Source: Myxococcota bacterium (GTDB lineage Bacteria; Myxococcota_A; Polyangia; Polyangiales; JANWZI01). Taken from it: 64,000 bases of DNA. A model generated the notes under the pieces. It made no database searches. It was not told the DNA's origin and saw only the letters and a program-made list of their open reading frames with translations. The stretch spans positions 3,838 to 67,837 of the forward strand of contig JANWZI010000005.1 of assembly GCA_025054695.1 (NCBI GenBank). The letters run 5' to 3'. A program made the position numbers and the translations under genes. Shown here piece by piece: positions 17,639 to 63,272 of the stretch; the first letter of the stretch is position 1, and each line of letters starts with the position of its first letter.

Positions 17639-17745
17639 GGCGCGCGTGGCCTAGCACGACCCATCGGGCGCGTCGCACCCCGACGAGACGCGCGTCCGCC
17701 GGCGCCCGTTCGCTCCCCTGCGTGCGCCGTCGTACGCGTGATCTC

Positions 17746-18390
17746 GTGAGCCGATCCGCGCGCGAGGAGGCTCTCGATACCGTGCAAGGCGCCCCCGTCG
17801 ACGAGGACCGATGGGTCCAGGTCCTGCGCGCGCCGGTCGAGCCGTCGGACGCGGAGCTCGTGCGGCGGATTCGCGACGGCGATCGCTGGGCGGAGAAGGC
17901 GCTGTACCGTCGTCATGCGTCGCTGGTCCTGGGCACGGCGGTGCGCCTGCTGCGCGACCGCACGGAAGCCGAGGACGTCGCGCAGGAGACGTTCCTGCTC
18001 GCCTTCGAGTCCATCGGCCAGCTCCGCGACGCCGAGGCCGTGCGGGCCTGGCTGCTGCGCATCGTCGTCTCGCGCGTGCATCGTCGCTTTCGCCGTCGAC
18101 GTCTTCTGCGGCTGCTCGGCTTCGTCGACGCCTACGACGAAGGGCTCGCGCAGGCCGCGGGGCCGGAAACGACGCCCGAGCAGCGCGCGGCCCTCGCCCG
18201 CATCGACCGCGTCCTCGACGGGCTGCCGGCGCCGGTGCGCATCGCCTGGACGCTGCGTTTCGTTCTGGGGGCGAGTCTCGAGGAAGTGGCCGCGGCGTGC
18301 GACTGTTCGCTCGCCACGGTCAAGCGTCGCATCGCCGCGGCCCAGCGTCGGCTGCAGGCGGAAGCCGGCGTCGAGGTGCTCGATGGCTGA
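17746..18390 (+). CDS. ECF-type RNA polymerase sigma factor
   Basis: Region 2 DVAQETFLLAF and region 4 HTH SLEEVAAACDCSLATVKRRI. GTG 17746 chosen. Confidence 0.8.
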   Translation: MSRSAREEALDTVQGAPVDEDRWVQVLRAPVEPSDAELVRRIRDGDRWAEKALYRRHASLVLGTAVRLLRDRTEAEDVAQETFLLAFESIGQLRDAEAVRAWLLRIVVSRVHRRFRRRRLLRLLGFVDAYDEGLAQAAGPETTPEQRAALARIDRVLDGLPAPVRIAWTLRFVLGASLEEVAAACDCSLATVKRRIAAAQRRLQAEAGVEVLDG

Positions 18391-19702: not shown

Positions 19703-20721
19703 CGCTCGCGGTGGGGCTCGTCTTGATGGCGGCCCACGCCGGCCGTGCCCCAGCGCAGTCGGAGTGCCCGCGCCTGCGTGTGGAAGGATGCGACGCACGC
19801 GTCGAGACCGCCGCACTCGGCCTCGCGCTGCGGGTCGAGCTCGACCAGGCCTGCGACGGCGGCGCACGCGTGGACGTCGTGCTGCGTTGTGAGTCGGACG
19901 CATCGGTCGTCTGGGACGTCGCGACGGCCGAGCGAGCACGGTCTGGACGCACGTTTCTCGCGGGAGGTACGCCGTCGGTGCGCGCGCGTGTGCTCGCGAT
20001 CGTGCTCGCGGAAGCCGTCCTCGCGGCTCTGCACGGCGGCACGGTGGCGGCGACGGATCGCCCGCCGGAGCCGGTCGGGTCGGATGCCGCGACAGCCGGC
20101 GGCCTCGTATCGCCGGCCCCCCACGACGAGCGCGGAGGCGGTCTCTCGCGAGCCGCGCCCTCTTCCTACCCCGTCGCTCGACCGGCGGCGCTGCTGCGTT
20201 TCGAGGCGCTGCCGGTGCGGACGGATCCGGGTCCTTCCTGGTCCGTCGCGACGTCGCTCCGGAGCCACATGGGCAGCCACGGCGCCTCGATGATCGCCTT
20301 CAGCGGCGGGATTGGAGCAGGCGCGTTTCATCTCGAGGCGACGCACGCCTGGGCCGCGACGCCGGGCGCACGGAACGAAGGGCCCGCGGTGGATGCGACC
20401 ATGCACCTGACGGCGGTCGAGATGGCTGTCGGCGTGCTGCGCGCCGGCTCCGGCGCGTGGTCCTGGGAGCTCGCCGTGCGCGGTATGGCCGGGCTGTTGC
20501 GAGCGCGCGGCGAGCCGCGAGACGCCCGTTTCCGCGGGCTGGTGCGCTGGGCACCGTACGTCGCAGCCGCGATCGGACTCCAGGCGGGGCTCGATGGTTC
20601 GCGGGGCGGTCTCGAAGCGGACGCGAGCATCGGGTGGGCGCAAGGGCTGGAGGCGGCGGTCGACGGCCGCCCGCTCCTCGTCGCGCACGGGCCATTCGTC
20701 GGCGCGCGGCTCAGCGCGCGA
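19699..20721 (+). CDS. secreted hypothetical protein, third gene of the ECF module; 3' end unresolved
   Basis: GTGA overlap with the anti-sigma stop. Signal peptide LVLMAAHAGRAPAQ. Third-position GC is high. The frame has no stop until 22563 and runs codon-aligned antisense through the nucleotidase gene. Confidence 0.5.
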
Positions 20722-22485
20722 TCACGGCGTCGGGCAGCGTACGGGCCGCCGGCCCGGAAGCACGATCCGGGGACGCTGCCGGTCGAACAGGGCCGGATCG
20801 TCCGCGCGGATTTCCCCGCCGCGGGCTTCGAGCAGTCGCGCGATTTCCTCGCGAATCGGTGGCTCGTCTTCGATGACGACGGCACCCGGCCGGCGGCGGA
20901 CGTCCTCGAATACGTCGTCACCGCCCGTGGCCACGAAATCGCTCGTGAGCACACGAAGCGGTTCGTCGTCGCGTACCGGCTGCCCGTCGGGCCGCAGAAG
21001 CTCGACGTCGAGATCGGTGCCCTCGCATCGCGCCACGACGCGCACGCCCGCCACCGACAGGATCCCGCGACCTCCCCGCAGGTTGCGCTCGAAGACCCGT
21101 TCCAGCTCCCGCCCGGTCATGAGAACCGTCGCGAAGCGGTTGTCGAACGGCAGCGCTTCGTACAGGGAGCCATAGGTGAGCTCGCCCGCAGGAAGCGAGT
21201 CACGCAATCCGCCGCCGTTGTAGAGGGCCACGTCGGCACCCGGCCGTGCCCGCAACATGAGGTCGACCACGAGGTTGCCGAGCGGCGACTCTTCGTCGTA
21301 GTCCCGGCGGACCGGGCGAGGGAGCCGCACGCCGAGCGAACGGTCTCGCACCGCACGCGCAGCCTCGAGATACGGCGCGATGGCCCGCAGCACGCGCTCC
21401 GAGGGTCGGACCGGGGCACCCTCGTACGGCTCGGGCCGGCAATCGGCGAGCGACTCCGACCGGCTGCGGCACAGCTCGCGGGGCGGATGGATGTCGGCAC
21501 GAAGCACGCGGCGCGTGGCGCGGTCGAGGACGAGATCGACGCGCCCGAATCCGCGTCCGTTGGCCCACGATTCGACGATGGCGACGCCGTGGACGCGATG
21601 TGCAACGACGTCGTGGGTGTGCCCGGCGGCAATCACGTCGACCAGGCCCTGAGGCAACGCGCGCGCAAGCCGGAAGATCTCGGAATCGGTCCTGCAGCTC
21701 GAGAGGTCGTCCGGCGCATCGCTCCGGCGGCACGCTCCTCCCGCATGGGCGAGCACGACCACCACGTGCGCCCCCTCGCGCCGCAGCGCGCTCGCCTGCT
21801 CGCGCACCGCTTCGGCGAGCGGCCGGACGGCAAGATCCGCGACGTTGGCCGCGATCGTCGTGCTCGGGGTCTCTTCGGTCGTCACGCCGGTCAGACCGAC
21901 GCGGATGCCGGCCATCTCGAGCAGGACGCGCTCGCGCACCCCGGGCCACTGCACGGGCCGACCGCTCGCACGTTCCACGAGGTTCGCGGCCAGAAGCGCA
22001 AACGGCGCCTCTCGCGCCCGCTCGAGCAGCGCTCCGCGTGGATCGTCGCCCGGACCGGAAGGCGTCGCACGGGGCCCGACGGGACCGTAGTCGAACTCGT
22101 GATTGCCGATGGCCATCGCGTGGTAGCCCGCCTCCGCGTAGGCGCGCACCATCGCGGCTCCCTCGCTCAGATTGCTTTCGAGCGTGCCCTGCCAGGCGTC
22201 GCCGGCGTCGACGAGCAGCACCGCGCCCGCATCGGCCGCGCGCACTCGACGCAGATTCTCGACGTGGCCGGCGAGCACCGCGACGCGCTCGATCCGGCCA
22301 TGTACGTCGTTGGTCGCGACGACGGACAGGACGACCGTGTCGCCGCCCGCCGCGCGACCCGATCCGACCGGTTCGGAGGACGCACGCGTCGCGCCCGGCT
22401 GCTGACCCGGTTGGGCGCCGGGCAGCCGCACCCACGGCCCATCGCATGCCGCCACAAGCGCCGCGATGGCGAGCGCGCCCCGCAC
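20722..22485 (-). CDS. bifunctional metallophosphatase/5'-nucleotidase lipoprotein
   Basis: NDVHGR, DAGDAWQG, GNHEFD, LAHAGG and GHTHD motifs plus a C-terminal nucleotidase domain (GNLVVDLM, YNGGGLR). Lipobox LVAAC. GTG 22485 is preferred over ATG 22536, which would overlap the upstream gene. Confidence 0.88.
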   Translation of the reverse strand: MRGALAIAALVAACDGPWVRLPGAQPGQQPGATRASSEPVGSGRAAGGDTVVLSVVATNDVHGRIERVAVLAGHVENLRRVRAADAGAVLLVDAGDAWQGTLESNLSEGAAMVRAYAEAGYHAMAIGNHEFDYGPVGPRATPSGPGDDPRGALLERAREAPFALLAANLVERASGRPVQWPGVRERVLLEMAGIRVGLTGVTTEETPSTTIAANVADLAVRPLAEAVREQASALRREGAHVVVVLAHAGGACRRSDAPDDLSSCRTDSEIFRLARALPQGLVDVIAAGHTHDVVAHRVHGVAIVESWANGRGFGRVDLVLDRATRRVLRADIHPPRELCRSRSESLADCRPEPYEGAPVRPSERVLRAIAPYLEAARAVRDRSLGVRLPRPVRRDYDEESPLGNLVVDLMLRARPGADVALYNGGGLRDSLPAGELTYGSLYEALPFDNRFATVLMTGRELERVFERNLRGGRGILSVAGVRVVARCEGTDLDVELLRPDGQPVRDDEPLRVLTSDFVATGGDDVFEDVRRRPGAVVIEDEPPIREEIARLLEARGGEIRADDPALFDRQRPRIVLPGRRPVRCPTP

Positions 22486-22495
22486 GCCCCGCGAA

Positions 22496-23314
22496 TCAAC
22501 CGGCGCGCGCCCACGCACGTACCAACGCCTCCGCATCCGCCCCCGCGAGCCGCCGGACCGTGACCACGTCGGCCGCGCGCACGTCGCGATGCGTCGTGAT
22601 CTCGTGCGCGACGACCACGTCCCCTTCGGCCGTCCGGCCGATGCATCGCGACCGGACCCGAACTTCGTCGTCGTCGGTCACGCCGGCGCGGAAGACCGCG
22701 CGTTCGGCGACGGGCTGCAGCGCCGCCGGCGACAGCCCCGCGGCCGCCATGACGCGGCTCGTGGCCTCGTCGGCCCAGTCGATGTACGCGGGGTGGTTGA
22801 CGTGGCCGAGCGGATCCATCCACGTGTGCCAGCAGCGGAAGCGCAGCTCGTGCACCGCGTTCGAATCCACCGGCTCCCACGACGGCAACTCGACGCTCGG
22901 ACCCTCCTCGTGCACCGGAAACGCGGCCAGGAGCTCCGCGCTCGCGCGCACCGGTCGCAGATCGGCGCGGACGTGCGCCCACAGCTGCGTTCCGGCGGCG
23001 AGCACAGATCCGTCGGCCGCGAGCATGCGCACCTCCCGCGTCGAGAACACGTCGCGCCGGAATCGCGACACCCACGTCCGTGCGCGGGTCTGCTCGCCGT
23101 ATCCCGCCTCGCGCAGGTGACGCACGATCATCTCGCGCACCACGAAGGCCGTGCCGCTCGCGCGGTAGCGCTCCGGCGGAAAACCGGCACGGCAACTCGC
23201 CTCGACCGCAGCTTCCTGGAAGAAGCGCCACACGTCGGCGGCGCGGCATGCGTCCCGCGGACCGAAGGCATACCGCGGCAGCCTGAGGACGAATTCGTGG
23301 ACGGGCTCGCTCAC
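22496..23314 (-). CDS. double-hotdog acyl-ACP/acyl-CoA thioesterase-like protein
   Basis: GTG 23314. Two hotdog halves (VVREMIVRHL..., LGHVNHPAYIDWADEA...). The ORF stays open upstream through array R4 in a Pro/Ser frame. Confidence 0.65.
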   Translation of the reverse strand: MSEPVHEFVLRLPRYAFGPRDACRAADVWRFFQEAAVEASCRAGFPPERYRASGTAFVVREMIVRHLREAGYGEQTRARTWVSRFRRDVFSTREVRMLAADGSVLAAGTQLWAHVRADLRPVRASAELLAAFPVHEEGPSVELPSWEPVDSNAVHELRFRCWHTWMDPLGHVNHPAYIDWADEATSRVMAAAGLSPAALQPVAERAVFRAGVTDDDEVRVRSRCIGRTAEGDVVVAHEITTHRDVRAADVVTVRRLAGADAEALVRAWARAG

Positions 23315-23350: not shown

Positions 23351-23529
23351 CGGGCTCGGTCTCGGACTCCGGCTCGGACTCGGACTCGGGCTCGGGCTCC
23401 GACTCGGACTCGGGATCGGATTGGGGATCGCAACACCATTGCGCCACGTCGAGCAACGTGACCGCCGCCATCGGACTCGGACTCGGGTCTCGGGCTCCGG
23501 CTCGGACGCTGAACCGAGACTCGGACTCA
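23351..23529 (-). repeat. Period-6 array, copy R4: tail, conserved head, and a second short tail
   Basis: Tail at 23351-23426. Head at 23427-23471 reads on the minus strand atg gcg gcg gtc acg ttg ctc gac gtg gcg caa tgg tgt tgc gat. More units at 23472-23529. Confidence 0.9.
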
Positions 23530-31735: not shown

Positions 31736-32827
31736 ATGCACCGGAGCCGTGGAGCGAGCACAAATCTCTGGGGCGTATGGTTCGTCGTGGCGGTGGGTTG
31801 CGGCGGAGCCGCAGAGCCGCCCGCGCTGCGTGATGCGGGCGACGATCCCGCCGACGCCGCCCGCGACGCGACCGTTCCGGGGCCCGACGCCCAGATGGGC
31901 GTCGATGCCGACGCCGAACGCGACGCGACGATTTCGGCGGACGCCGGAGGCGCGCCGGATTCGGGAGGAACGCCGTCGGTGGATCCGGCCGCGAGGGGTC
32001 CGCACCGCGTCCACGTACTCGAGGGCGAGGTGGTCCGGGAGCGGCGCCGCATTCCGGTGGCGGCCCACACGCCGGGCGGCGTCGATCGCGCTCCGCTCGT
32101 GGTGTTCCTGCCCGGGTTCCAGCTCACGTCGGCCGACTATCTATCGACCGTCGAGCACCTTGCGACTCACGGTTTCGTCGTGCTGCGCGCCGATCCGCCG
32201 GCGAGCCTGGTCTCCGTCGATCACGTGCAGATGGCGGCCGACGTGCGCGCGGTCGTCGGTTGGGCGCTCGAGGCCGACGGGTTGCTCGCCGGTCGTGTCG
32301 ATCCGGACCGCGTCGGGCTCGCGGGACACAGTCTCGGCGGCAAGGTGGCCGCGATGGCGGCGGCCGAGGATCCGCGCATCGGCGCGGTCTTCGGCATCGA
32401 CCCGGTCAACGCCGGCAATCCGATCACGGGCTTCACCCCGTCGTTGCCCGACATCCTTCCCGAGGTCGTCGCGACGCTCGACATGCCGGTGGGCTTCGTC
32501 GGCGAGACGACGAACGCGGAAGGCTTCGGGCAGCCGTGCGCGCCTCGCGACGGCAACTTCCAGCAGTTCTACGCGGCGGCCACCGGTGCGCCGTGGGCGG
32601 CCTCCTGGGAGATCGCGGGGGCCGACCACATGGACTTTCCCGACCGCTGCGGCCTGCTCTGCGGCGCCTGCACGCCGGGTACGGCCGATCCGGCGCGCGT
32701 CCGCGCGATCACCCGCACGCTCGCGACGGCGTTCTTCCGCCGCCACCTGCTGGGGCAATCCGCGATGGAGGACTGGCTCACAGGGCCCCGCGTACCGGAC
32801 GGCGTCACCACGATGCACCGGCCCTGA
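31736..32827 (+). CDS. alpha/beta-hydrolase lipoprotein (chlorophyllase/dienelactone-hydrolase-like)
   Basis: Lipobox VAVGCGG. Nucleophile elbow GHSLGG. Its TGA stop abuts the first triplet of the R5 head. Confidence 0.7.
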
Positions 32828-33052
32828 TAGCGGCGGTCACGTTGCGTGACGTGGCCGAGGAGTGTTGCGAGTCCGAGCCCGAGACCCAGTCCGTGTCCGT
32901 GTCCGAGCTCGAGCCCGCGCCTGAGCCCGAGACCGAGTCCGAACCTGAGTCCGAGCCCGAGCCTGAGTCCGAGGCCGAGCCAGAGCCCGAGACCGAGTCC
33001 AAGTCAGAGTCCGAGACCGAGACCGAGCCTGAGTCCGAGTCCGGGCTCGAGC
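32827..33052 (+). repeat. Period-6 array, copy R5, with conserved head
   Basis: Head at 32827-32871: ata gcg gcg gtc acg ttg cgt gac gtg gcc gag gag tgt tgc gag. About 30 units follow. The Glu frame stops at 33081. Confidence 0.9.
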
Positions 33053-33143
33053 CGTCATCAACTAACCGACTGCCGCTGTGAGCGCGCTCGCGCCGGCCCG
33101 CCTTGCGTCGTCCGGAACCTCGTGACAGCTTCCGCGCCCCCAG

Positions 33144-33500: not shown

Positions 33501-33755
33501 GTCGAGTCCGAGACCGAGTCTGAACCCGAGTCCGTGTCCGCGCCCCAGGCCGCTTCCGAGACCGAGTCCGAGGCCGAGCCCGAGTAAAACGCGCGATCGA
33601 CCCACCTGGCCGGCGCAGTGATTCCGAGGCCGCGTCGGAGTCCGAGCCTGAGACCGGGTCCGAGATTGAGCCTGAGCCTGAGTCCGAGTCCGAGACGGAG
33701 TCCGAGTCAAGTTCGGAGACCGGGCCCGAGCCCGAGGCGGAGATGGAGACCGAGG
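33501..33755 (+). repeat. Period-6 array, copy R6 (two blocks, 33501-33587 and 33623-33755)
   Basis: gag tcc gag acc gag tct gaa ccc ... gag ccc gag taa. The second block is in a different phase: tcc gag gcc gcg tcg gag tcc gag cct gag acc. Confidence 0.85.
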
Positions 33756-41386: not shown

Positions 41387-41435
41387 CACGGTCTTGGGCC
41401 CTCCCAACGTAGCCGGTCCTCGCATGCACCACCGC

Positions 41436-41605
41436 GGACTCGGGCTCGGGCTCGGTCTCGCGCTCGGACTCTGACTCGGTCTCGGACTCGACTCGGGCTC
41501 GGCCTCGGTCTCCGACTCGGTCTCCGACGCGGTCTCGGACTCGGGCTCAGGCTCGGACTCCGGCTCGGTCTCGGGCTCGTACGTGCACCCCGAACCGCCC
41601 GTCAA
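41436..41605 (-). repeat. Period-6 array, copy R7, with deletion-variant head
   Basis: Minus strand reads ttg acg ggc ggt tcg ggg tgc acg tac gag ccc gag acc... The head lacks the central ~18 nt. TTG overlaps the mog stop (TTGA). A 1-nt indel inside the tail changes phase. Confidence 0.85.
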
Positions 41606-43109: not shown

Positions 43110-43245
43110 TGCCGCGGGGCGCGGTTCTGCGAAGGAATGCGCTGACCGAGATGATGTTGACTCCGCCGCCGAGGCCGAGACCGAGGCCGAGACGAAGTCC
43201 CAATCCGAGCCCGAGCCCGAATCAAAGGCCGAGTCCCGGCCCTAG
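43110..43245 (+). repeat. Period-6 array, copy R8 (short, degenerate head; antisense to both neighbours)
   Basis: gcc gag gcc gag acc gag gcc gag acg aag tcc caa tcc gag ccc gag ccc gaa tca aag gcc gag tcc cgg ccc tag. Confidence 0.75.
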
Positions 43246-46390: not shown

Positions 46391-46455
46391 GGCCGGGCGA
46401 GGATATCCGGGGCGTGGGCCCGCGCCACGACTCGACGCGCGAGCGCGCCGCGGGC

Positions 46456-47478
46456 ATGATGGGCGCCGTGGGAGGCGCACGCGGCATCGCGTGGCTGCTC
46501 GGATTGTCGCTGCCGGGCGCCGTGGTACTCGTCACGCTCGCGTCGCCGACGGCCGCCCAATCGCCCGTCGAGACACCCGCGGCTTGCACAGTCCGCGGAA
46601 CGGTGAGCGTCGACGAGGCTCGGGTCGAGGTGCAGGGAAGCGCGCCGCTGCGGCTCGCGCTGCGGGAAGTGCGCGCGGAGGTCGTCCTGGAGCCGGGACG
46701 GCCGCCGCGCATCGCCGTGCTGGGGCCACTGCGCTTCGAAGCCTTGCCGAGAACTCCCCTCCCATGGCGGTTCACGCGCGGCGCGGACCTGGCCGGCGGC
46801 GTCCTGCACGTTTCGCCCGCGACGCGCATCGCTCGCGTCGAGGCGGGACCGGACGGCGTCCGAGCCGACGTCGAGCTCTCGCCGGCCCTGATCGCACGCG
46901 CCGTCGCCGTGCCGTGCGGGTTGCTCGCTCTCGGTGCGGTGGACGCGCCGACGCAACGCGAGGCCGTGGAAACCGGGCACCTGGTCCCACGCCGGCGCAC
47001 TCTCGCGTTGCGACCGCGTCCGACCGAGGCCCCGAGCGTCGAGCTCGAATTGCGGCAGGGTGCGCGTCTTGGGCTGCAGCCCGTCGGACGCGACGGCGGG
47101 TTCTCCCGGGTCTGGCGCACGTTCGAGAACGGCTCAGGCTTGTCGGGATGGGTCGACGATCGGGACGTGGTCGAGGCCCGCCGCCCGATGCCCGCCTCAC
47201 CCGTCGCGGCCGCTCCCGTGCGCCGGGCGCGCTGCGAGCCCGTCGAATTCGACCGGCCGACCCTGCCCGAGGGGACGACGGTCCACGTACGACCCGACGG
47301 ACCGGTCTGGGCGACCGTCGCGGCGGACGCCGCATTTGTGCTCGCGCCCCGACCCCGAGGCTGGAGCGCGATCCTGCACGCCGAGGGAATCGCGCCCGCT
47401 CCCCTCCAGCGCTGCCCACGCCCGTTCGCGACGGCCTTCATCCGAACGGCGAGCGAGCCGGAATCGAGCTCCCGCTGA
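46456..47478 (+). CDS. secreted hypothetical protein
   Basis: Signal IAWLLGLSLPGAVVLVTLASPTAAQ. Start ATG 46456 or 46414. No domain recognised. Confidence 0.55.
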   Translation: MMGAVGGARGIAWLLGLSLPGAVVLVTLASPTAAQSPVETPAACTVRGTVSVDEARVEVQGSAPLRLALREVRAEVVLEPGRPPRIAVLGPLRFEALPRTPLPWRFTRGADLAGGVLHVSPATRIARVEAGPDGVRADVELSPALIARAVAVPCGLLALGAVDAPTQREAVETGHLVPRRRTLALRPRPTEAPSVELELRQGARLGLQPVGRDGGFSRVWRTFENGSGLSGWVDDRDVVEARRPMPASPVAAAPVRRARCEPVEFDRPTLPEGTTVHVRPDGPVWATVAADAAFVLAPRPRGWSAILHAEGIAPAPLQRCPRPFATAFIRTASEPESSSR

Positions 47479-47507: not shown

Positions 47508-47715
47508 TCCGAAACCGACCTCGAAGCCACCGCGTCGGAGTCCAAGGCCAAGACCGAGTATGACGGCGGCGGTCTCGTTGCTCGACGTGGCCGAGGGGTG
47601 CTGCGAGCCCGAGCCCGAGACTGAGCCCGAAGCCGAGACCGAGACCGAGACCGAGACCGAGTCCGAGTCCGAGACCCTGCCCAACCTCGAGAGCGAATCC
47701 GAGGCGGAACGATGA
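47508..47715 (+). repeat. Period-6 array, copy R9, best-preserved head plus complete 51-codon Glu-frame micro-ORF
   Basis: Short pre-tail at 47508-47558. Head at 47560-47607: atg acg gcg gcg gtc tcg ttg ctc gac gtg gcc gag ggg tgc tgc gag. Tail to 47700, TGA at 47713-47715. Peptide: MTAAVSLLDVAEGCCEPEPETEPEAETETETETESESETLPNLESESEAER. Confidence 0.9.
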
Positions 47716-47776
47716 CGCGGTGGGACGGCGCGCCCGTCGCGGCTTTGCGGTACAAGGGAATCGCGACGAGGTCGGC

Positions 47777-50542
47777 ATGCACGAGCGCAATGCGGCCCTA
47801 CGGGATCTCGGCCAGAGCATCTGGCTCGACTACATTCGCCGCGATCTGATCGCGACAGGCGAGCTGTCGCGACTGGTCGAGGAGGGTGTGCGGGGCGTCA
47901 CGAGCAACCCGACGATCTTCGAGAAGGCGATCGGCGGTTCGTCCGATTACGACGGCTGGCTCGAACGTCACGTGCTCGAGGAGCCGCACGAGAGCCCCGA
48001 CCGGCTCTACGAACGGCTCGCCGTCGACGACGTGCGCGCGGCTTGCGACGTGCTGCGGCCCGTCTGGGAGGCCTCGGACGGCATCGACGGCTGGGTCAGC
48101 CTCGAAGTTTCGCCCGGGCTCGCCCACGACGCGGCCGGCACCGTCGCCGAGGCGCGTCGGCTCCGGGCGGCTGTCGATCGTCCCAACGTGATGATCAAGG
48201 TTCCCGCCACCGACGCGGGCATCGACGCGCTCGGCGCGTTGCTCGACGAGGGCATCGCCGTCAACGTGACGCTGCTCTTCGGCGTCGCGCGCTACGAACG
48301 CGTCGCGCACACGTACGTGCAAGCCGTCGAGCGCGCGAACGACCCGCGGCGGCGGCACTCGGTCGCCAGCTTCTTCGTCAGTCGCATCGACGCGGCGGTC
48401 GACCCGCTGCTCGAACGCGACGGACGCGCGCAGGCGCTGGCCCTACGCGGCCGTGTCGCAGTCGCCAACGCCCGCGTCGCCTACGCACGCTTCCGCACCG
48501 TGTTCTCCGGCCCGCGCTGGGAGGCGTTGCGCGCGCGAGGCGCCCGACCCCAGCGGCTGCTGTGGGCCAGCACCGGCGTCAAGGACCCGCGCCTACCGGA
48601 CGTGCTGTACGTCGAATCGCTCGCCGGGCCCGACACCGTGAACACGATGCCGCCCTCGACGTACGCCGCGTGGCTCGATCACGGACGGCCTCGCGCGAGC
48701 CTGCTCGAAGCCGGTGACGAGCGTGCGGTGCTCGACGCGCTCGACTCGCTCGGCATCCGATTCGACGAGGTGGTCGCTCGCCTCGAAGCCGACGGGTTGT
48801 CGGCCTTCGCGCGCAGCTTCGACGCGCTGCGCGCTACCCTCGCCGACAAGCGCCGCCGCATTCTCGAACGACACGAGAGCCGCCAGCATCTGGCGCTCGG
48901 CGCGTACGAGCCCATCGTGCGCGCGCGACTGGACGGCTTCGAACGCGAACGGCTGCTTCACCGGCTGTGGGCTCGCGATCCGACGATCTGGCGGCCGGAG
49001 CCCGAGCCCGAGCTCGTCGACCGCCTCGGCTGGCTGACCCTGCACGAGCGCATGGAGGGGCGCGAGCCGGAGCTCGTCGAGCTCGCCCGATCGGTTCGCG
49101 ACGACGGCATCGAGCGCGTCCTGCTTCTCGGCATGGGGGGCAGCTCGCTCGCCCCGGAGGTCTTCCGCGCCGTGCTCGGACGCGCCCCCGGCCACCCCGA
49201 GCTCGAGGTGCTCGACACGACGCACCCGGACGCCGTCGAGGCGTCCCTGCGCACGCTCGACCCTTCACGCACGCTCGTCGTCGTCGCCAGCAAGAGCGGC
49301 ACGACGATCGAAAGCCAGGCGCTCTACCACGTGCTCTGGGATCGGTGCGCGAGCCTCGGCGCCGCGCGGCCGTCGCGTTTCGTGGCGATCACGGACCCGG
49401 GCACGCCGCTCGAGCACCTCGCGCGCGAGCGCGGCTTCCGGCGGGTTTTCCTCGCGCCGCCCGACGTCGGCGGCCGCTACAGCGCGCTCAGCGTCTTCGG
49501 TCTGTTGCCGGCGGCGCTCGTCGGCATCGATCCGGACGACTTGCTCGACCGCGCCTGGACGATGGCCGAGGCCAACGCCGCGTGCGTGCCACCGTCGCGG
49601 GCGCCGGCCGCCCGATTGGGGGCCGCGCTCGGCGAGCTGGTGCGCGCCGGCCGCGACAAGGTCACGTTCGTCTGCTCGCCCGCCCTGCGCGCGCTGCCCG
49701 CGTGGATCGAGCAACTGCTCGCCGAGAGCACGGGCAAGGACGGCACGGGCATCGTGCCCGTCGCGGACGAGGAGCTGGGGCCACCCGACGTGTACGGCAC
49801 CGATCGGGTCTTCGTCGCGTTCCGGCTCGAAGGCGACGGCAGCGATGGGCTGGAGCAACGTCTGGACGAGCTGGAGCGCGCGGGTCACCCGGTCGTGCGC
49901 TTGCGTCTCGCCAGCGCCAAGGACATCGCGCAGGAAATGGTGCGATTCGAGATCGCGACGGCCATCGCGGGAGCCGTGCTCGGGATTCATCCGTTCAATC
50001 AGCCCGACGTGCAGCTCGCCAAGCAACTGGCGGCCGACGCCATGGCCGGCCGCATCGATCCATCCGAATCCGGCGCGGCACCGGTCCCCGCGGACGACGC
50101 GCGCGCGCTCGAGGACGCGTGGGCGGCCTGGATTCGCGCCGCGCGCCCCGGCGACTACGTCGCGCTGCAGGCGTTTCTCGCACCCTCGGCGGGGCTCTGG
50201 CACCGGCTGCAAGCCGTTCGGCACGCACTGCGTGACCGGCTTGGCCTTGCGACGACGCTCGGCTGGGGACCGCGCTTCTTGCACTCGACCGGCCAGCTGC
50301 ACAAGGGAGACGGGAACCGCGGCCTTTTCCTGCAACTCGTCGACGAACCGGCCGCCTCGGTCCCCGTCCCCGAGACCTCCTACGATCTGCGTCGCTTGCT
50401 GCGCGCTCAGGCCGACGGTGACGCGCTCGCGCTGCGGAGCCGAGGGCGCCGGCTGCTGCGCGTGAACCTCGGCGCGGCCCCCGACGCCGGGCTGCAACGG
50501 TTGCTCGACCTGGCGGCTCGGGCCAGCGGGAACGATGCGTGA
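47777..50542 (+). CDS. bifunctional transaldolase / glucose-6-phosphate isomerase
   Basis: N-terminal half is transaldolase (SIWLDYIRRD, GVTSNPTIF, MIKVPAT). C-terminal half is PGI/SIS-like (LLGMGGSSLAPEV, VVVASKSGTTIES). ATG 47777. Confidence 0.88.
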   Translation: MHERNAALRDLGQSIWLDYIRRDLIATGELSRLVEEGVRGVTSNPTIFEKAIGGSSDYDGWLERHVLEEPHESPDRLYERLAVDDVRAACDVLRPVWEASDGIDGWVSLEVSPGLAHDAAGTVAEARRLRAAVDRPNVMIKVPATDAGIDALGALLDEGIAVNVTLLFGVARYERVAHTYVQAVERANDPRRRHSVASFFVSRIDAAVDPLLERDGRAQALALRGRVAVANARVAYARFRTVFSGPRWEALRARGARPQRLLWASTGVKDPRLPDVLYVESLAGPDTVNTMPPSTYAAWLDHGRPRASLLEAGDERAVLDALDSLGIRFDEVVARLEADGLSAFARSFDALRATLADKRRRILERHESRQHLALGAYEPIVRARLDGFERERLLHRLWARDPTIWRPEPEPELVDRLGWLTLHERMEGREPELVELARSVRDDGIERVLLLGMGGSSLAPEVFRAVLGRAPGHPELEVLDTTHPDAVEASLRTLDPSRTLVVVASKSGTTIESQALYHVLWDRCASLGAARPSRFVAITDPGTPLEHLARERGFRRVFLAPPDVGGRYSALSVFGLLPAALVGIDPDDLLDRAWTMAEANAACVPPSRAPAARLGAALGELVRAGRDKVTFVCSPALRALPAWIEQLLAESTGKDGTGIVPVADEELGPPDVYGTDRVFVAFRLEGDGSDGLEQRLDELERAGHPVVRLRLASAKDIAQEMVRFEIATAIAGAVLGIHPFNQPDVQLAKQLAADAMAGRIDPSESGAAPVPADDARALEDAWAAWIRAARPGDYVALQAFLAPSAGLWHRLQAVRHALRDRLGLATTLGWGPRFLHSTGQLHKGDGNRGLFLQLVDEPAASVPVPETSYDLRRLLRAQADGDALALRSRGRRLLRVNLGAAPDAGLQRLLDLAARASGNDA

Positions 50543-52945: not shown

Positions 52946-53806
52946 GTGGGCGGGGGTGTAGCCCTGACCGCACAGGACGTCAACGCAGCGCGTGCGCGTC
53001 CGCGCGGCATCGTCGCCACCAGCGCGGCTCTCGTCGTGCTGCCAGCCGGCGCGCTGCTGGCGCTGTGGACGCCCCGTCCGGTGCCGCCGCGCGAGACCCC
53101 CGGACTGCACCTCGATCCCACGGCCTGTGCCCACGCCATCGCGCAGGACCGTGCCCTCGCGGCGGAGTCACCGACGGGGGAGGCCGCCGAGCGTCTGCGC
53201 CGCGCGCTGCATGCGCTCGGCACCTCCCAGGCGCGTGCGAGCGTGATGACCGAAGGCGAGCACCACGACACGATTTTCGAGATCCGGCGCGCGGCGAACG
53301 CCCTCGGCCCCACCGCGCTGTCGCGGCTGCGCGCGAGCCTCGTCGAGCGCCTCGAGCCCGCGCTCGCCCTTCCCGCGGACGACGACGAGCGCCGCGCGCT
53401 TCTCGGCGACTTCGAGCAGACCCTCGATCGGTTCGGCCTGCGTCGGGGAGGAAGAATCCTCGCACCCGCAATCGTCGTACGCGCCCTCTACAAGGCTCGT
53501 TTCAACCATCTCGCCGGGGTCGAGCCGACGGATGGACTCCACGACGTGGAGCGACTCGCGTACTGGGGCTGGCTCGCGCTCGAGGCCGACGGCGTCGAGC
53601 CCGCACGCCGGCTCGCGGCGCTCTCCGAGTACGAACGGCTCGGCGGTGCAGGAACGGCAGAAGCTCGCGCGACCTTGCTCTTTCTCGCCGGGCGGCTGCC
53701 AGAGGCGGCGCAGGCGTTCTCGGCACTCGACCCCGAAGGCCGCAACCCCAGGTTGCGCAACGCGACGCTCGCCGTCCTCGCGTTGTCGAACGAGAGCGAG
53801 CCGTGA
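52946..53806 (+). CDS. hypothetical helical protein
   Basis: N-terminal hydrophobic segment AALVVLPAGALLALW. Ala/Leu/Arg-rich helices. Start uncertain. The stop overlaps a GTG that opens a weak head-like segment. Confidence 0.5.
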   Translation: MGGGVALTAQDVNAARARPRGIVATSAALVVLPAGALLALWTPRPVPPRETPGLHLDPTACAHAIAQDRALAAESPTGEAAERLRRALHALGTSQARASVMTEGEHHDTIFEIRRAANALGPTALSRLRASLVERLEPALALPADDDERRALLGDFEQTLDRFGLRRGGRILAPAIVVRALYKARFNHLAGVEPTDGLHDVERLAYWGWLALEADGVEPARRLAALSEYERLGGAGTAEARATLLFLAGRLPEAAQAFSALDPEGRNPRLRNATLAVLALSNESEP

Positions 53807-53895: not shown

Positions 53896-54046
53896 CTCCG
53901 AGGTCGAGACCGTGCCCGAGGCCGAGACCGAAACCGAGGCCGAGACCCAGGCTGAGACCGACTCCGAGATCGAGGCCTGGTCCGAGCCCGAGTCCGACTC
54001 CGAGTCCGAGACCGAGCCCGAGTCCGAGTCCGAGTCCGAGACCCAG
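53896..54046 (+). repeat. Period-6 array, copy R10
   Basis: gag gtc gag acc gtg ccc gag gcc gag acc gaa acc gag gcc ... gag tcc gag tcc gag tcc gag acc cag. Glu-frame ORF 53912..54100 starts GTG CCC, like R1. Confidence 0.88.
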
Positions 54047-58879: not shown

Positions 58880-60067
58880 CTACCGCGACGCGGGGACCCC
58901 GTCGACCGCGTCGAGGAACGATGCCATGTAGCCCGTATCCTCGGCCGCCAACGCCTCCGCCGTCCACCGCAACGGGCGCAGCGTGTCCATCATCACCGCC
59001 AGCTCGTCCGTGCGCGCCGTCCCGATGCTGGCCTCGTACGCACCCGGATGCGGACCGTGGGGCAGACCGGCCGGATGGTAGCTGATGCTCGCCGGACCGA
59101 CGCCCCGCCGCGAAGTGAAGTTGCCACTGACGTAAAAGAGGATCTCGTCGCAATCGACGCTCGAGTGCGGATAGGGACACGGAATGGCGTCCGGGTGGAA
59201 ATCGACGAGCCTCGGAACGAACGAGCAGATGAGCGCACCCGGCGTCGCGAACGTGCCGTGCCAGTCCGGCGGCAGGTGCACGAGGCCTACGCGGGGCTGG
59301 AACCGGAGGATGGGGAACGCCCACGGATAGACGCTTCCGTCCCACCCTACGGCGTCGAGCGGGGAATGGGGCAACCGATACGCGTGGAACCCCCCACCGC
59401 GTTTGACGAGCACCTCGCGGATCCCCTCGTCGAGGGGACCGCGGAACACTGGTCTGCGGAAGTCGCGGTGACCATAGGGGGCGTCCATGCGCAGTTGTCC
59501 CGTCTCGGTGCGCCAGCGCGAGGGCAAGCCCACCCCGCCCGCGCACTCGATGCCGAGCCAGTACTGCGCGACGCCGGCGTCGGGAATCGCGCGCCAGAGG
59601 ACTCCCTTCGGAATCACGACGGAGTCGTGCCGTTCGTAGCGCAGATCGCCGAGCACGCTGCGGACGATTCCGCTTCCCTCGTGCACGAAGAACAGGTCGT
59701 CGCCGTCCCCGTTGAGGAAGTAGATCGGATCGGGCTCGGTGGGACGCACGAGCGTCACCGTGACGTCCTCGTTGAAGCAGAGCACGACGCGGCCGTCGAC
59801 CTGCGGACCGGGCCGCGTCGGCACCTGGGGCGTCCGAACGTGCCGTTTGCAAAGCGCCAGGCCCTCCACGGGCACGGCCGGCTTCCAGCCATGCCGCCGT
59901 TCCACGGGCACGTGCAGGTGCGGCCGGCGCTCGTGGTAGACGATCGTGTAGGGCCCGTCGAACCCGCGCCGCGTGATGCAGTGCTCGTAGCGCAGCGATC
60001 CGTCCGGGCCGCGCAGTTGAACGTGGTGCTTGATCGGCACCTCTCCGGCCTGCATGCGGTCGAGCAC
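58880..60067 (-). CDS. hmgA: homogentisate 1,2-dioxygenase (short form)
   Basis: Cupin-type HGD family by eye (YFLNGDGDDLFFVHEGSG, ISYHPAGLPHGPHPG). Lies in the tyrosine-catabolic operon. Confidence 0.8.
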   Translation of the reverse strand: MLDRMQAGEVPIKHHVQLRGPDGSLRYEHCITRRGFDGPYTIVYHERRPHLHVPVERRHGWKPAVPVEGLALCKRHVRTPQVPTRPGPQVDGRVVLCFNEDVTVTLVRPTEPDPIYFLNGDGDDLFFVHEGSGIVRSVLGDLRYERHDSVVIPKGVLWRAIPDAGVAQYWLGIECAGGVGLPSRWRTETGQLRMDAPYGHRDFRRPVFRGPLDEGIREVLVKRGGGFHAYRLPHSPLDAVGWDGSVYPWAFPILRFQPRVGLVHLPPDWHGTFATPGALICSFVPRLVDFHPDAIPCPYPHSSVDCDEILFYVSGNFTSRRGVGPASISYHPAGLPHGPHPGAYEASIGTARTDELAVMMDTLRPLRWTAEALAAEDTGYMASFLDAVDGVPASR

Positions 60068-60085: not shown

Positions 60086-61236
<1,151 letters not shown>

Positions 61237-61240
<4 letters not shown>

Positions 61241-61899
61241 GGGCGTGGCTCCACGATGGGTTCGGCATCCGGTTGGCGCTCCGGGCGCGCCGCGGCGAAC
61301 GCGTCGAGCCGTTCGCACGCCTCTTCGACGCGCCGCAGCGTCGGAAACGCGTCCAGCGCGACGCCGAAGCGCCGCGCATTGTACAGTTGTGGGACGAGGC
61401 ACAGGTCGGCGATCCCCGGCGCGTCCCCCACCGCGAATCGACCGGCCGTCTCTTGCATCTCGGCTTCAAGGGCTTCGAGCCCGCGTTGGATCCAGTAGGC
61501 CGCCCACGATCGCGAATCGACCCCGTGCGACTCCAGGCGACGGAGCACCGACAGATTCTGCAGTGGCTGGATGCCACTGTTGACGATCTCGGCGAGCGCC
61601 GTCGCCCGCGCGCGCAGATACGGATCGGCGGGCCACAAGGGCGGCTCGGGCACCCGGCGTTCGAGGTAATCGCAGATGGCGAGGGACTGGGTAAGCCGGC
61701 GTCCGTCGATCTCGACGACGGGAACCTGCTGCATCGGATTGCGTCTGCGATGCACCTCGCCGAATTGCTCCCCGCCCTCGCGTACCAGGTGGACCGGCTC
61801 GTAGCAGTACGGCACGCCCTTGAGGTTCAAGGCGATGCGCACGCGCCACGTCGCGCTCGAGCGCCAGTATCCCCACAGCGTCACGCGGGGCGCAGTCAT
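61237..61899 (-). CDS. maiA: maleylacetoacetate isomerase (zeta-class GST)
   Basis: YWRSSATWRVRIALNLKG, NPMQQVPVVEIDG. ATG 61899 overlaps the FAH stop (ATGA). Confidence 0.88.
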
Positions 61900-62879
61900 G
61901 CCGCCACCACCTTCTGGTCGATGGAGCCGAAGACGTTGCGGCCCGCGTCGTCGAACATCTCGATGCGCACCCGGTTGCCCGGCTGCAAGAACGGCGTGGT
62001 CGGCCGCCCGTCTCGCAGCTGCTCCCGCATGCGTCGCTCGGCGAGGCAACTGACCCCACGCGCCGGATCTTCCGTGCTCACGGTGCCTCCACCGAGAATG
62101 GTGCCCGCGGTGAAGGAGCGCGTGCGGGCGATGTGGGCGATCAGATCGCAAAACGAGAAATGCATCTCCGCGCCGGCGTCGATGTCGCCGACGAGCCGAT
62201 CGTCCAGGTAGGTGCGGAGGGGCAGATGCAGCCGCCCCGCGCGCCAGGCCGGGCCCAGCTCGTCCGGAGTGACGGCGAACGGCGAGAACGCGCTCGCGGG
62301 TTTGCTCTGGAAGAAGCCGAAACCCTTGGCGAGCTCGTCGGGCACCAGATTGCGAAGGGTCACGTCGTTGACGAGCATCACCAATCGGATGTAGCGCTCG
62401 GCCGCCGCGGCGCTCGTGCCGCGCGGCACGTCGCCGAGGATCACCGCCACCTCCGCCTCGAAGTCGCAGCCCCATGCGACGTCGGGCAGCTCGATGTCGT
62501 CGCGCGGCCCGAGCAGCACCCCCGAGCCGCCCTGGTAGACGAGCGGGTCGGTGCGCAGCGTCGGGGGCGGCTCGGCACCGCGCGCACGGCGAACGAGCAC
62601 GACGTGGCTGAGATACGCCGACCCGTCGATCCATTCGTAGGCGCGCGGCAGCGGAGGACCGAGCGGCGTCGACTCGTCGAGCGGCTCGGCGCCGGCAATC
62701 CGACCCGCGTCCAGATCCGCAGCGAGCGCCGCCAGGCGTGGGGCGGTCCGCTCCCAGTCGTCGAGCGCCGACTGGAGAGTAGACGCGATGGCGGCGGCGC
62801 TCGCCATCCGCCGTCCGTCCGAGGAGACGACGACGAGCCGCCCGTCTCGACTACCGTCCCGGACCGTCGCCAGCCGCAC
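61896..62879 (-). CDS. fumarylacetoacetate hydrolase family protein
   Basis: FAH fold motifs (CDFEAEVAVILG, MLVNDVTLRNL, GTILGGGTVS). GTG start at 62879. First gene of the FAH-maiA-hppD-hmgA operon. Confidence 0.85.
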   Translation of the reverse strand: MRLATVRDGSRDGRLVVVSSDGRRMASAAAIASTLQSALDDWERTAPRLAALAADLDAGRIAGAEPLDESTPLGPPLPRAYEWIDGSAYLSHVVLVRRARGAEPPPTLRTDPLVYQGGSGVLLGPRDDIELPDVAWGCDFEAEVAVILGDVPRGTSAAAAERYIRLVMLVNDVTLRNLVPDELAKGFGFFQSKPASAFSPFAVTPDELGPAWRAGRLHLPLRTYLDDRLVGDIDAGAEMHFSFCDLIAHIARTRSFTAGTILGGGTVSTEDPARGVSCLAERRMREQLRDGRPTTPFLQPGNRVRIEMFDDAGRNVFGSIDQKVVAA

Positions 62880-62905: not shown

Positions 62906-63065
62906 CGCGCTCTCAAGCGGCCCTTCGCGAGCGATGTGCGACAAGTCTCGCCTGCGTCCTGCGGTCCTACGAGGCGCCCTCGGCCGGCGCGACGGTTCGG
63001 GACGAACCCGCGCCGCGTGGGCGGGACGTCGGAGTCGACGCAGGTCGGTGGGGCACGATCGCCCT

Positions 63066-63272
63066 GGTGGTGGCGGTCACGTGGGTCGCCCGTGCGGCGC
63101 GGGGTATTGCGCGCTCGAGTCGGAGTCGGTGACCGAGTCGGAGTCGGAGACCGAGGCAGACGCCGAGCCCGAGCCCGAACCCAAGTCCGACCCAGAGCCC
63201 GGACCCGAGGCCATGTCCGTGTCCGAGTCCGAGCCGGAGACCGAGGCGGATTGCGTATCCGAGTCCGAGCGG
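63066..63272 (+). repeat. Period-6 array, copy R11, with indel-bearing head (antisense to both neighbours)
   Basis: Head at 63066-63116: gtg gtg gcg gtc acg tgg gtc gcc cgt gcg gcg cgg ggt att gcg. Tail: gag tcg gag tcg gtg acc gag tcg gag tcg gag acc gag gca gac gcc gag ccc... Confidence 0.88.

Follow-up and report, generated by a model that had tools for sequence, protein, structure and literature searches.

A 47-nucleotide repeat module accompanies some of the intergenic hexamer arrays of a Myxococcota bacterium

The window analysed here is a stretch of 64,000 nt from contig JANWZI010000005.1 of a Myxococcota bacterium (assembly GCA_025054695.1), and it is ≈ 99.9% identical to contigs of GCA_033577305.1. 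At the locus R9, two plus-strand genes flank a degenerate mini-array of hexamers, a head of ≈ 47 nt and a main array of hexamers (Table 1). The ATG at 47560-47562 overlaps the first bases of the head and opens the clean 51-codon ORF that had been described at this locus before; its product reads MTAAVSLLDVAEGCCE-(XE)n-TLPNLESESEAER. The upstream gene and the ORF are in the same frame, and only the TGA of that gene intervenes. The ORF peptide had no homologue at E ≤ 10, and no gene is called at R9, R5 or R4 in GCA_033577305.1. A protein identical to the downstream Tal-Pgi carries the label 'Myxococcota bacterium'; the best non-self homologue is 60% identical, so that there was no close relative for an analysis of synteny.

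Table 1. Heads, hexamer arrays and flanking genes (positions in the window unless stated otherwise)
Feature	Position	Strand	Remarks
Gene upstream of R9	46414-47478	+	354 aa, no Pfam match
Mini-array 5' of R9 head	47511-47558	+	Degenerate; one base out of phase with head and main array
ORF R9	47560-47715	+	51 codons, ATG to TGA
Head R9	47561-47607	+	TGACGGCGGCGGTCTCG...TGCTGCGAG; covariance model 71.9 bits
Array R9	47608-47673	+	11 units, single phase
Gene downstream of R9	47777-50542	+	Transaldolase/phosphoglucose isomerase fusion (Tal-Pgi)
Head R5	32825-32871	+	Covariance model 73.2 bits; no ATG (CTG ATA)
Array R5	32872-33051	+	30 units; Glu-frame stop 33079-33081; rpsU starts at 33144
Array R4b	23355-23426	-	3' of R4 head
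Head R4	23427-23473	-	Covariance model 65 bits; ATG one codon later than in R9
Array R4a	23474-23528	-	5' of R4 head, out of phase with head
Head R11, decayed	63063-63113	+	Several small indels, net +2 nt; covariance model 12.3 bits, E ≈ 1
Array R11	63114-63269	+	Downstream of decayed head
Head L037	390-437		Outside the window, same organism
Head L038-A	3620-3666		Outside the window, same organism; tandem partner of L038-B
Head L038-B	3675-3726		Outside the window, same organism; tandem partner of L038-A; +5 nt
Head in protein P0122			Eighth copy, elsewhere in the same genome
Array R0, headless	42-131	+	Divergent intergenic region
Array R1, headless	1784-1969	+	MerR/TPR gene on one side, aminotransferase gene on the other
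Array R2, headless	5093-5212	-	3' of epimerase gene (5261-6151, minus strand)
Array R3, headless	6207-6350	-	5' of epimerase gene (5261-6151, minus strand)
Array R6a, headless	33501-33584	+	3' of rpsU; ends in TAA
Array R6b, headless	33623-33754	+	
Array R7, headless	41435-41581	-	3' of mog; 1-nt deletion within array
Array R8, headless	43162-43233	+	Antisense; one minus-strand gene on either side
Array R10, headless	53897-54046	+	Upstream of dnaJ

The arrays have the form (NCNGAG)n and translate, in what we call the Glu frame, as (S/P/T/A-E)n. The motif was found at at least 15 separate intergenic loci, in roughly one in five of the intergenic regions of this genome, and no array lies inside a gene. 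Arrays occur in either orientation relative to their neighbours: co-directional regions hold sense copies at R1, R4, R5, R6, R9, R10 and L037 (n = 7) and antisense copies at R8, R11, L035 (1596-1751, def/fmt) and L038 (3620-3774; n = 4). One position of the hexamer is free and five are held at 79-94%; position 3 varies in 21% of the units, compared with 6-10% at positions 2, 4 and 5. The X codons are NCC in 74-88% of cases, whereas the 47 genes of the window favour NCG at 53-67% (chi-square p between 5e-7 and 5e-25; AGC-Ser, 1 of 136). The composition of the arrays is fixed at the nucleotide level (NCC-GAG) and does not follow the codon usage of the genome. Frame-shifting indels are few, namely the single 1-nt deletion in R7 and phase shifts at the junctions of arrays and heads, against ≈ 190 substitutions. 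Length changes between strains amount to whole hexamers; R10 differs from its counterpart in GCA_033577305.1 by one unit.

Several simple descriptions of the arrays were tried and rejected. Unstructured spacers or Rho loading sites are not what we see, since the arrays fold better than shuffled sequences (z = -3.4 and -1.8) and C does not exceed G. A hairpin preceding every array is contradicted by the folding z-scores of the flanks, which scatter about 0. Nor are the arrays N- or C-terminal parts of the annotated neighbours, because none is fused to them in frame without a stop. A 3' module shared by the arrays was rejected as well: a block of 20 nt occurs in L037 and L035 alone and nowhere in the window.

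The head is a real repeat module of ≈ 47 nt that is known so far only from this organism. Three heads had been proposed from an alignment by hand (47560-47607, 32827-32871 and, on the minus strand, 23427-23471), and all three are real. A 31-nt consensus, allowing at most three mismatches, matched 47566-47596 and 32830-32860 and gave no match in 100 shuffles; nhmmer and a covariance model recovered R9, R5 and R4 at E values of ≈ 1e-13 to 1e-19. Their pairwise identity, put at 80-87% by the earlier note, was 79-88% by our measurement (79-83% over 48 nt and 81-88% in the 42-nt core). The additional, indel-bearing heads fared less uniformly. The one at 63066-63116 (R11) is real and decayed: its local alignment with R5 scored 31, a value that was reached in 0 of 300 shuffles (mean 14.5), and its profile match has an E value of only ≈ 1. 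At 41570-41605 (R7), 6351-6415 (R3) and 53803 (R10), the profile matched the hexamer part only, and the supposed heads were not significant in shuffled local alignments. Because the heads of R7, R3 and R10 are unsupported, the count of four in-phase copies in seven mixes real and unreal copies.

All seven DNA copies of the head are intergenic and lie within ≈ 78 kb. A minority of the arrays carry a head at their 5' (GAG-sense) end, and heads may also sit between arrays (R9, and R4 with the order array, head, array) or in tandem (L038). Stop codons had been reported near 32825, 41602 and 53803, and TGA is indeed present at each place (32825-32827; 41602-41604, mog; 53804-53806). Two head copies, R5 and L037, start at or beside the stop codon of the upstream gene; the first three bases of the R5 head are the TGA of a hydrolase gene (31736-32827). 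No other head touches an upstream stop, and none of the array ORFs extends to a downstream start. The R11 head is antisense to both of its neighbours (61896-62879 and 63077-64975, both minus strand).

Using nhmmer and the covariance model, we found no further heads in 103 kb of this organism. An exact-pattern scan for GCGGTCNCGTTGCNNGACGTGGC, which is blind to diverged copies such as L038-A and L038-B, gave no true copy in 185,579 GTDB species genomes or in JGI metagenomes; the 15 loci from the GTDB genomes and the 16 from the metagenomes were all single, array-free chance matches, many of them within genes reading AVTLRDVA. At the protein level, tblastn-like and HMM searches for the head peptide, along the lines of a check that had been suggested for related genomes, detected it in this organism alone. 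The only matches from profile searches were P0122 and P0123, which belong to this organism, and P0121, which looks to us like a translated REP-like repeat from a different one. Pfam gave sub-threshold low-complexity matches and no family above threshold for the peptide of head and array, and the only Rfam match at gathering score in the whole window was a tRNA-Pro. A search of the literature on repeats in Myxococcota returned nothing relevant.

The conserved blocks of the head (GCGGC, GGTCACG, CGTGGCC and GYTGC) are those that are able to pair as a two-helix stem-loop, and the variable stretches and the 5-nt insertion lie in its loops. In the alignment, 92.9% of 84 stem cells pair, compared with 29-55% when the partners are slid. 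One stem change is compensatory (C-G to U-A), and four more are compatible and one-sided; this covariation is not significant, since 88 of 500 shuffles match it. Folding energies of the head copies range from -11.7 to -15.9 kcal/mol, with modest z-scores for the single hairpins (-0.1 to -2.4), and the R9 region as a whole shows no unusual stability (z = -0.89). In R9, one stem pair is broken and uncompensated. Differences from the consensus fall in 7% of the paired and 23% of the unpaired columns (Fisher p = 0.002), a contrast that is partly circular because the structure came from the same six related sequences. The two-helix stem-loop is a prediction. As an intrinsic terminator it was rejected: the hairpin is followed by GAGGGGTGYTGCGAG and the array, with no T run and no terminator-like site at the head.

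The explanation that we tentatively place first, at a little less than even confidence, is that the head is a module of a mosaic interspersed repeat, together with the hexamer arrays, and that the ORF is incidental. The arrays would grow by replication slippage, favoured by self-pairing, and the heads would be copied with or between arrays. Such copying might proceed by recombination or gene conversion between dispersed arrays, or by a transposition-like step; no terminal repeats, target duplications or copying mechanism of the heads were identified. If the head is functional, its active form would be a hairpin of RNA or single-stranded DNA, located in the transcript of the upstream gene within the 3' untranslated or intercistronic part. 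The ATG would be a by-product, as would the MTAAV...CC reading and the R9 ORF of 51 codons, and the frames of the arrays would be open because such arrays cannot easily acquire stops in a genome of 71% G+C.

Alternatively, and with distinctly lower probability, head and array could be a translated mini-gene that makes a short peptide, e.g. LDVAEGCCEPEPETEPEAETETETETESESETLPNLESESEAER, with a hydrophobic-acidic N-terminus containing two cysteines followed by (S/P/T/A-E)n. Translation might start at ATG (R9 and R4), at a conserved TTG after GGAGG (L037) or at an invariant GTG, with ribosomes that come from the upstream gene or bind de novo. The effect could lie in the product or in the act of translating a poly-acidic, proline-interrupted chain, possibly as a leader or spacer ORF through which expression of the flanking genes is coupled or uncoupled. 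Consistent with this, R9 has its clean ORF, and a gene finder called a 69-codon ORF at L037. The codon usage of the head is gene-like, and only so in the Glu frame (+0.41 to +1.09 per codon; 14 of 14 third positions G or C). GAG has changed to TAG in 0 of 345 hexamer units, compared with 4-12 occurrences of each of the other eight one-step neighbours (Poisson p ≈ 0.007-0.04). The higher variability of hexamer position 3, the scarcity of frame-shifting indels relative to substitutions and the abutment of the R5 and L037 heads on upstream stops point the same way. So does the restriction of intact heads to sense contexts: all four heads downstream of a co-oriented gene are intact and in phase, whereas all three antisense heads are diverged or frame-broken (1 in 35 by an exact test, by our own arithmetic). 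All intact heads are also in phase with the Glu frame of their own array; this is not independent evidence, because the junction TGY-TGC-GAG-NCC-GAG lies within the copied sequence.

Other observations argue against translation. The earlier note had proposed that the head supplies a start codon and an N-terminus to some arrays. An ATG is present in R9 and, shifted by one codon, in R4, and the intact heads do lie in Glu phase, but the ATG is not conserved, being found in two of six DNA copies. R5 reads CTG-ATA at this site, in agreement with the ATA start given for it previously; L037 has an in-frame TGA and then TGT, L038-A has CCA-CGG and L038-B has TGA-CAG. A TTG is conserved in four of the six heads, and GGAGG precedes it in L037 only. 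Across the six copies there is no start codon that is kept at one position with a ribosome-binding site. Preservation of the frame and a bias towards synonymous change had been named as checks on coding. Some indels break the frame (+5 nt in L038-B, net +2 nt in R11), and R7 shifts frame within its array. R4, correctly described as lacking a nearby stop, has a Glu frame that meets no stop for 434 codons and runs across the next gene. Substitutions in the head show no clear bias to third positions (≈ 6:8:9 by codon position, from ≈ 23 events counted by hand in a small sample of related copies), and radical changes are tolerated (LL to RG in L038-A, L to R in R5). The non-repeat tails of the Glu-frame ORFs score as non-coding (-0.19 to -0.89 per codon, compared with +0.71 ± 0.40 for real genes), and the arrays keep to NCC-GAG among the synonymous possibilities, against the usage of the genome. 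Within co-directional gene pairs, def-fmt among them, three arrays and three heads are antisense. The lack of homologues beyond this organism, and of any Pfam family above threshold, also speaks against a protein.

The signals that keep translation alive, namely the absence of in-frame TAG, the coding-like head and the sense-only intact heads, are weak, and so is the evidence that the head starts a small acidic protein. The head fits a non-coding interspersed repeat slightly better, and the caution in the earlier note that it may be a DNA- or RNA-level module only is on the slightly better-supported side. Less likely again than a single translated mini-gene is a mobile family of translated intergenic mini-ORFs, each starting inside a 47-nt head that lies at the stop codon of a host gene or directly behind it, and continuing through a slippage-prone array. 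Termination-reinitiation would bring ribosomes into the poly-acidic, proline-interrupted chain, its translation and not its product would tune the expression of neighbouring genes or the fate of the transcript, and array length would be a heritable, rapidly mutable dial.

We are more doubtful still that the head is a dead coding fragment, e.g. the 5' end of a gene for a 'VTLRDVA' helix-turn-helix regulator, that spread passively and has no function. Coding-like heads stand beside non-coding-like tails, the chance matches elsewhere are often AVTLRDVA N-termini that, in our reading of the sequences, resemble helix-turn-helix regulators, and heads embedded between arrays (R4, R9) or in tandem (L038), as well as the decayed copies R11 and L038-B, would suit passive spread. 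Set against this, the parental gene was not found in ≈ 78 kb of this genome, the uneven conservation along the head tracks the stem-loop, and intact copies are confined to sense contexts.

It is very improbable that the arrays, heads included, serve as occasional C-terminal extensions of upstream proteins by read-through of TGA. The Glu frame equals the frame of the upstream gene in six of nine arrays 3' of a co-oriented gene (binomial p ≈ 0.04), five of these six are separated from it by the upstream TGA alone, and the L037 head follows its TGA directly and in frame; against this, the frames differ at R5, R1 and R7, a second stop is present at R6a, the presence of TGA is uninformative since it ends 43 of the 47 genes of the window, the spacers between stop and array do not look coding, and p ≈ 0.04 fails given the number of hypotheses tried. 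Equally improbable is a DNA operator for a dimeric regulator at the inverted repeat GGTCACG-N8-CGTGRCC, whose half-sites show the strongest conservation within the head and form a perfect palindrome in L038-A: the arms need a T-G wobble in five of six copies, which helps RNA and not recognition of duplex DNA, the position right after stops and inside arrays is atypical, and there is no linked regulator.

Our preferred reading, a mosaic interspersed repeat, can be set beside known systems. In bacterial VNTRs and microsatellites, as in the arrays, length changes by units between strains and slipped hairpins form; here, in contrast, one motif with one free and five constrained positions recurs at its many intergenic loci and is absent from genes. 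REP and BIME elements resemble the head in being short, imperfect, extragenic palindromes with potential G+C-rich stem-loops (predicted here), often placed right after stops, present in many copies and mosaic with other motifs. They differ in that the stem here (7-9 bp and an outer helix of 5 bp) is not statistically established, head copies are not in inverted pairs, and the partner is a hexamer microsatellite, which is absent from REP mosaics.

With the translated reading in mind, acidic, proline-interrupted leader peptides of the mgtL type, which reportedly destabilise the translating ribosome (Chadani et al., 2017), are comparable: both the leaders and the array ORFs are short, lie upstream of genes and encode Glu-rich chains with Pro residues in between. 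The ORFs here run to tens of codons, occur also 3' of genes and lack a conserved start and any evident tie to a regulated target.

MIRU elements (mycobacterial interspersed repetitive units) consist of units of 40-100 bp whose ORFs run into both neighbouring genes, with a spacing of -4 at the start codon, and the role proposed for the ORF is to maintain translational coupling and not to supply a useful product (Supply et al., 1997, as summarised in PMC3184786 and PMC12548453). MIRUs and the present arrays are both interspersed, tandem and intergenic in high-G+C bacteria, often lie between co-oriented genes in strain-variable copy number, and hold short ORFs with ends that touch the stop or start codons of neighbours. 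The unit here, however, is 6 bp with an optional, mostly single head of 47 nt, overlap is limited to the 5' side (R5 and L037) with no downstream start overlapped, in co-directional regions about one array in three is antisense, and there is no sequence similarity.

If the non-coding reading is true, head and arrays would be a distinctive type of bacterial interspersed repeat, a hexamer microsatellite that sometimes carries a structured head as a cap. The arrays break short-read assemblies of this lineage, and their open frames can be mis-called as genes. If they are translated, their slippage-tunable mini-ORFs, coupled to housekeeping genes, would make up a family of unusual size, with a bearing on the regulatory use of translating 'meaningless' short ORFs. 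On either reading, the case is limited so far to one species-level lineage known from metagenomes only. As a minor observation at R9, the hexanucleotide ATGACG is present at both ends of the ORF (47560-47565 and 47712-47717).

The window has a G+C content of 71% and contains 12 arrays of a six-base unit, all of them intergenic by the gene calls on public contigs and Pfam. Written on its GAG-bearing strand, the unit is N-C-C-G-A-G and translates as (Ser/Pro/Thr/Ala-Glu)n in what we call the Glu frame. Counted over 345 units of 18 arrays, position 1 was almost unconstrained (T 41%, C 27%, A 21%, G 12%), and positions 2 to 6 were C 93%, C 79%, G 94%, A 90% and G 89%. The variable codon was NCC in 74–88% of the 345 units, whereas window genes prefer NCG (53–67%) and use AGC for one third of their serines (chi-square p 5e-7 to 5e-25). 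The arrays are thus nucleotide-level repeats without free synonymous drift. In co-directional intergenic regions, seven arrays were sense and four antisense, the latter including one in the def/fmt spacer and one at a tandem-head locus upstream of the window. Array R10 has one hexamer (CCGAGT) fewer in the window than in GCA_033577305.1, the sole indel in a comparison of ~32 kb of both strains. Self-folding of the arrays beat that of shuffles in two tests (z = −3.4 and −1.8), and pairing of this kind would promote slippage. Three findings lean away from a pure nucleotide repeat. TAG replaced GAG in none of 345 units, the other eight one-step neighbours occurring 4–12 times each (Poisson p ~0.007–0.04, varying with the expected rate); among the constrained positions, position 3 varied most; and frame-shifting indels were few (one within array R7, and phase shifts at array–head junctions) against ~190 substitutions.

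Some arrays begin, in the GAG sense, with a non-repeat head of ~47 nt. The three strong heads of the earlier note (at arrays R9, R5 and R4) were borne out. Allowing up to three mismatches, a 31-nt consensus matched 47566–47596 and 32830–32860 and nothing in 100 shuffles. A profile of the strong copies recovered 47554–47619, 32818–32883 and 23416–23480 (minus strand) with E ~1e-18 to 1e-19, and a covariance model scored the R9, R5 and R4 heads at 65–73 bits. Their pairwise identity, put at about 80–87% before, was 79–83% over 48 nt and 81–88% over a 42-nt core. The clean ATG-to-TGA ORF of 51 codons at R9 (47560–47715) and the upstream-gene stops reported at head-like segments were likewise present. 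Of the indel-bearing heads proposed, that of R11 stood in part, as a decayed copy: it aligned to R5 above all 300 shuffles, with several small indels and a profile E of only ~1. At 41570–41605, 6351–6415 and 53803, the similarity was confined to the hexamer part and not significant.

Profile searches of protein collections returned two head-containing products, both of this organism: P0122 (...PVTAAVTLLDVAEGCCEPDFGS), labelled partial in two NCBI MAGs, and P0123, a 69-aa call on the 1-kb contig L037 of run SRR15826901, another contig of which matches part of the window exactly. L038, the 4 kb preceding the window, carries two tandem heads with a three-unit mini-array between them and an array after the second; the first head is in phase. 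In total there are six good DNA copies, one decayed and one protein-only, over ~78 kb and two stray contigs. Searched for in one genome per GTDB species and in JGI metagenomes, the exact core pattern of the head gave nothing but isolated chance matches. Two contigs of GCA_033577305.1 match the window at 99.9% identity. An identical Tal-Pgi protein carries the label "Myxococcota bacterium", and the next-best homologue is just 60% identical, so there is no close relative for synteny.

Coordinates of heads, arrays and neighbouring features (window positions unless a contig is named)
Feature	Position	Bases at ATG position	Remark
Head R9	47561–47607 (+)	ATG-ACG	
Head R5	32825–32871 (+)	CTG-ATA	
Head R4	23427–23473 (−)	G-ATG	
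Head L037		TGA-TGT	TGA is the upstream gene's in-frame stop
Head R11	63063–63113		net +2 nt
Head L038-A	L038 3620–3666	CCA-CGG	
Head L038-B	L038 3675–3726	TGA-CAG	+5-nt insertion
Tandem-head block	L038 3620–3774		4.2 kb before window position 1; antisense to the called genes on either side
Same-frame arrays	5093–5212, 23355–23473, 33501–33584, 47566–47673, 53897–54046; L037 396–533		Glu frame is upstream gene's frame
R10 hexamer difference	54018		R10 is 53897–54046
def-fmt array	L035 1596–1751		~8 kb past window end; 26 units in 317-nt spacer; GAG strand antisense to both genes
Hydrolase stops TGA TAG	32825–32830		consecutive, in frame
tal-pgi start	47720–47779		GTG 47720 (940 aa) or ATG 47777 (921 aa, NCBI)
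ATGACG pair	47560–47565, 47712–47717		both ends of R9 ORF
Inverted repeat	1748–1778		perfect, 9 bp
CGAACACYCCGACCGYCGCC block	L037 534–575, L035 1752–1790		20 nt
Array-free interval	6400–23300		17 kb
SNP clusters	59612–59633, 60710–60761		six in 22 nt; four in 52 nt
Short-read contig ends	34154–34333; L018 32858		in or beside arrays

Our preferred view, held tentatively, is that the head would be a module of a mosaic repeat whose ORF is incidental and whose stem-loop is predicted only. Such a module would account for the frozen nucleotide motif, the occurrence in both orientations, the embedded and tandem heads, the decayed copies and the uneven conservation along the head. We think it rather unlikely that the head opens a translated mini-ORF, supplying a start codon and the N-terminus M-AAV(T/S)LLDVAExCC as the earlier note had proposed. 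This reading draws on stop avoidance in the arrays, on intact heads in sense contexts and on gene-like codon usage: under a codon model trained on 47 window genes (gene mean +0.71, sd 0.40 in 15-codon windows), heads scored +0.41 to +1.09 per codon in the Glu frame. However, it failed three tests of its own, the third on a small sample of related copies. The start codon is not conserved, the bases at the ATG position varying between copies; the observed indels break phase (L038-B, R11) instead of preserving frame; and the ~23 substitution events in heads show no synonymous bias, falling ~6:8:9 over codon positions and including radical changes (Leu-Leu to Arg-Gly, Leu to Arg). Four of six copies retain a TTG seven codons into the head, preceded by a good GGAGG in L037 only, and all copies share a GTG that lacks a ribosome-binding motif. 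Head and array do share the Glu-frame phase in all intact heads; this agreement carries no independent weight, since the junction TGY-TGC-GAG-NCC-GAG itself belongs to the copied sequence. R4 indeed lacks a nearby stop and stays open for 434 codons, through the next gene in another frame. No gene was called at R9, R5 or R4 on public contigs, and no Pfam family was reached. The non-repeat tails and spacers of Glu-frame ORFs were non-coding-like (−0.19 to −0.89 per codon), with the sole exception of the R9 tail, itself hexamer-like. That the head is what remains of a coding fragment, without any function, appears improbable.

The four heads that follow a gene of the same orientation (R9, R5, R4, L037) are intact; the three antisense ones (R11, L038-A, L038-B) have diverged or lost the frame, a split with an exact-test probability of 1 in 35. 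Heads would thus seem to matter only when carried on the upstream gene's transcript. Either an RNA element or a translated ORF would fit this pattern, which argues against a role in duplex DNA alone; a DNA operator, like a read-through extension of the upstream protein, keeps a small residue of probability.

For the predicted stem-loop, RNAalifold pairs GCGGC with GYUGC in an outer helix and GGUCACG(UU) with (GA)CGUGGCC in an inner one. In the trimmed alignment, 92.9% of 84 cells pair, against 29–55% with slid partners. The changes in the stem comprise one compensatory (C-G to U-A, L038-A), four compatible one-sided and six broken cells; covariation was not significant, 88 of 500 shuffles of the trimmed head alignment reaching it. 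Folding energies were −11.7 to −15.9 kcal/mol per copy, with modest z-scores. Deviation from the consensus was 7% in paired and 23% in unpaired columns (p = 0.002), a partly circular comparison since the structure was derived from these sequences. The unpaired parts contain the L038-B insertion and the changed loop bases of L038-A (5/8). The hairpin is not general among arrays and has no U tract, and the stability of the whole R9 region was not unusual.

Mycobacterial MIRUs are intergenic tandem repeats of 40–100 bp in which an internal ORF overlaps the genes on either side; their insertion at start codons is thought to keep translational coupling intact (PMC3184786, PMC12548453). By analogy, MIRU is the nearest described counterpart of the start-codon and coupling idea, although its unit size and two-sided gene overlap are not matched by head and arrays, and its uniform orientation is matched at best in part (seven sense against four antisense). 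The small extragenic stem-loop (predicted here) and the mosaic habit resemble REP/BIME, but the inverted-pair arrangement is absent in heads. We file head and arrays as an interspersed intergenic repeat, so far from one metagenomic lineage.

Several further features were seen. The Glu frame is the upstream gene's frame in six of nine arrays 3' of a co-oriented gene (binomial p ~0.04), and in five of these the gene's TGA is the only intervening stop. Both stops of the hydrolase gene fall within the first bases of head R5. The start of tal-pgi differs by source; its Pfam domain starts at residue 15 of the 921-aa form. The 3' ATGACG at R9 continues ATGACGCGGTGGGAC, resembling the head's 5' end, and the pair may stem from a target duplication or a truncated second head, or have arisen by chance. 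The inverted repeat (GCACGGTGG...CCACCGTGC) lies between the MerR/TPR gene stop and array R1 and has no sequence relation to the head. The block CGAACACYCCGACCGYCGCC, absent from the window, follows two otherwise unrelated arrays and reads R-[SP]-N-T-P-T-[AV]-A in the Glu frame, with two synonymous differences between L037 and L035. Arrays are unevenly distributed, with one long array-free interval against ~1 array per 4 kb elsewhere. Public short-read contigs stop in or beside arrays: contig 42 ends past R6, the Logan contig ends within the R5 head, and P0122 is partial. Arrays fragment assemblies of this lineage. P0121, from another organism, is a 230-aa "protein" of tandem LTAAASLKDVPHSNC[RG]SEPARDG units that matched the head profile (E = 3e-4); it looks like a translated REP-like DNA repeat, a case of repeat-derived ORFs being able to mimic one another. 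Finally, SNPs against GCA_033577305.1 cluster within an HgmA-like gene (the six) and nearby (the four), which looks like strain mixing in the MAG or local recombination.
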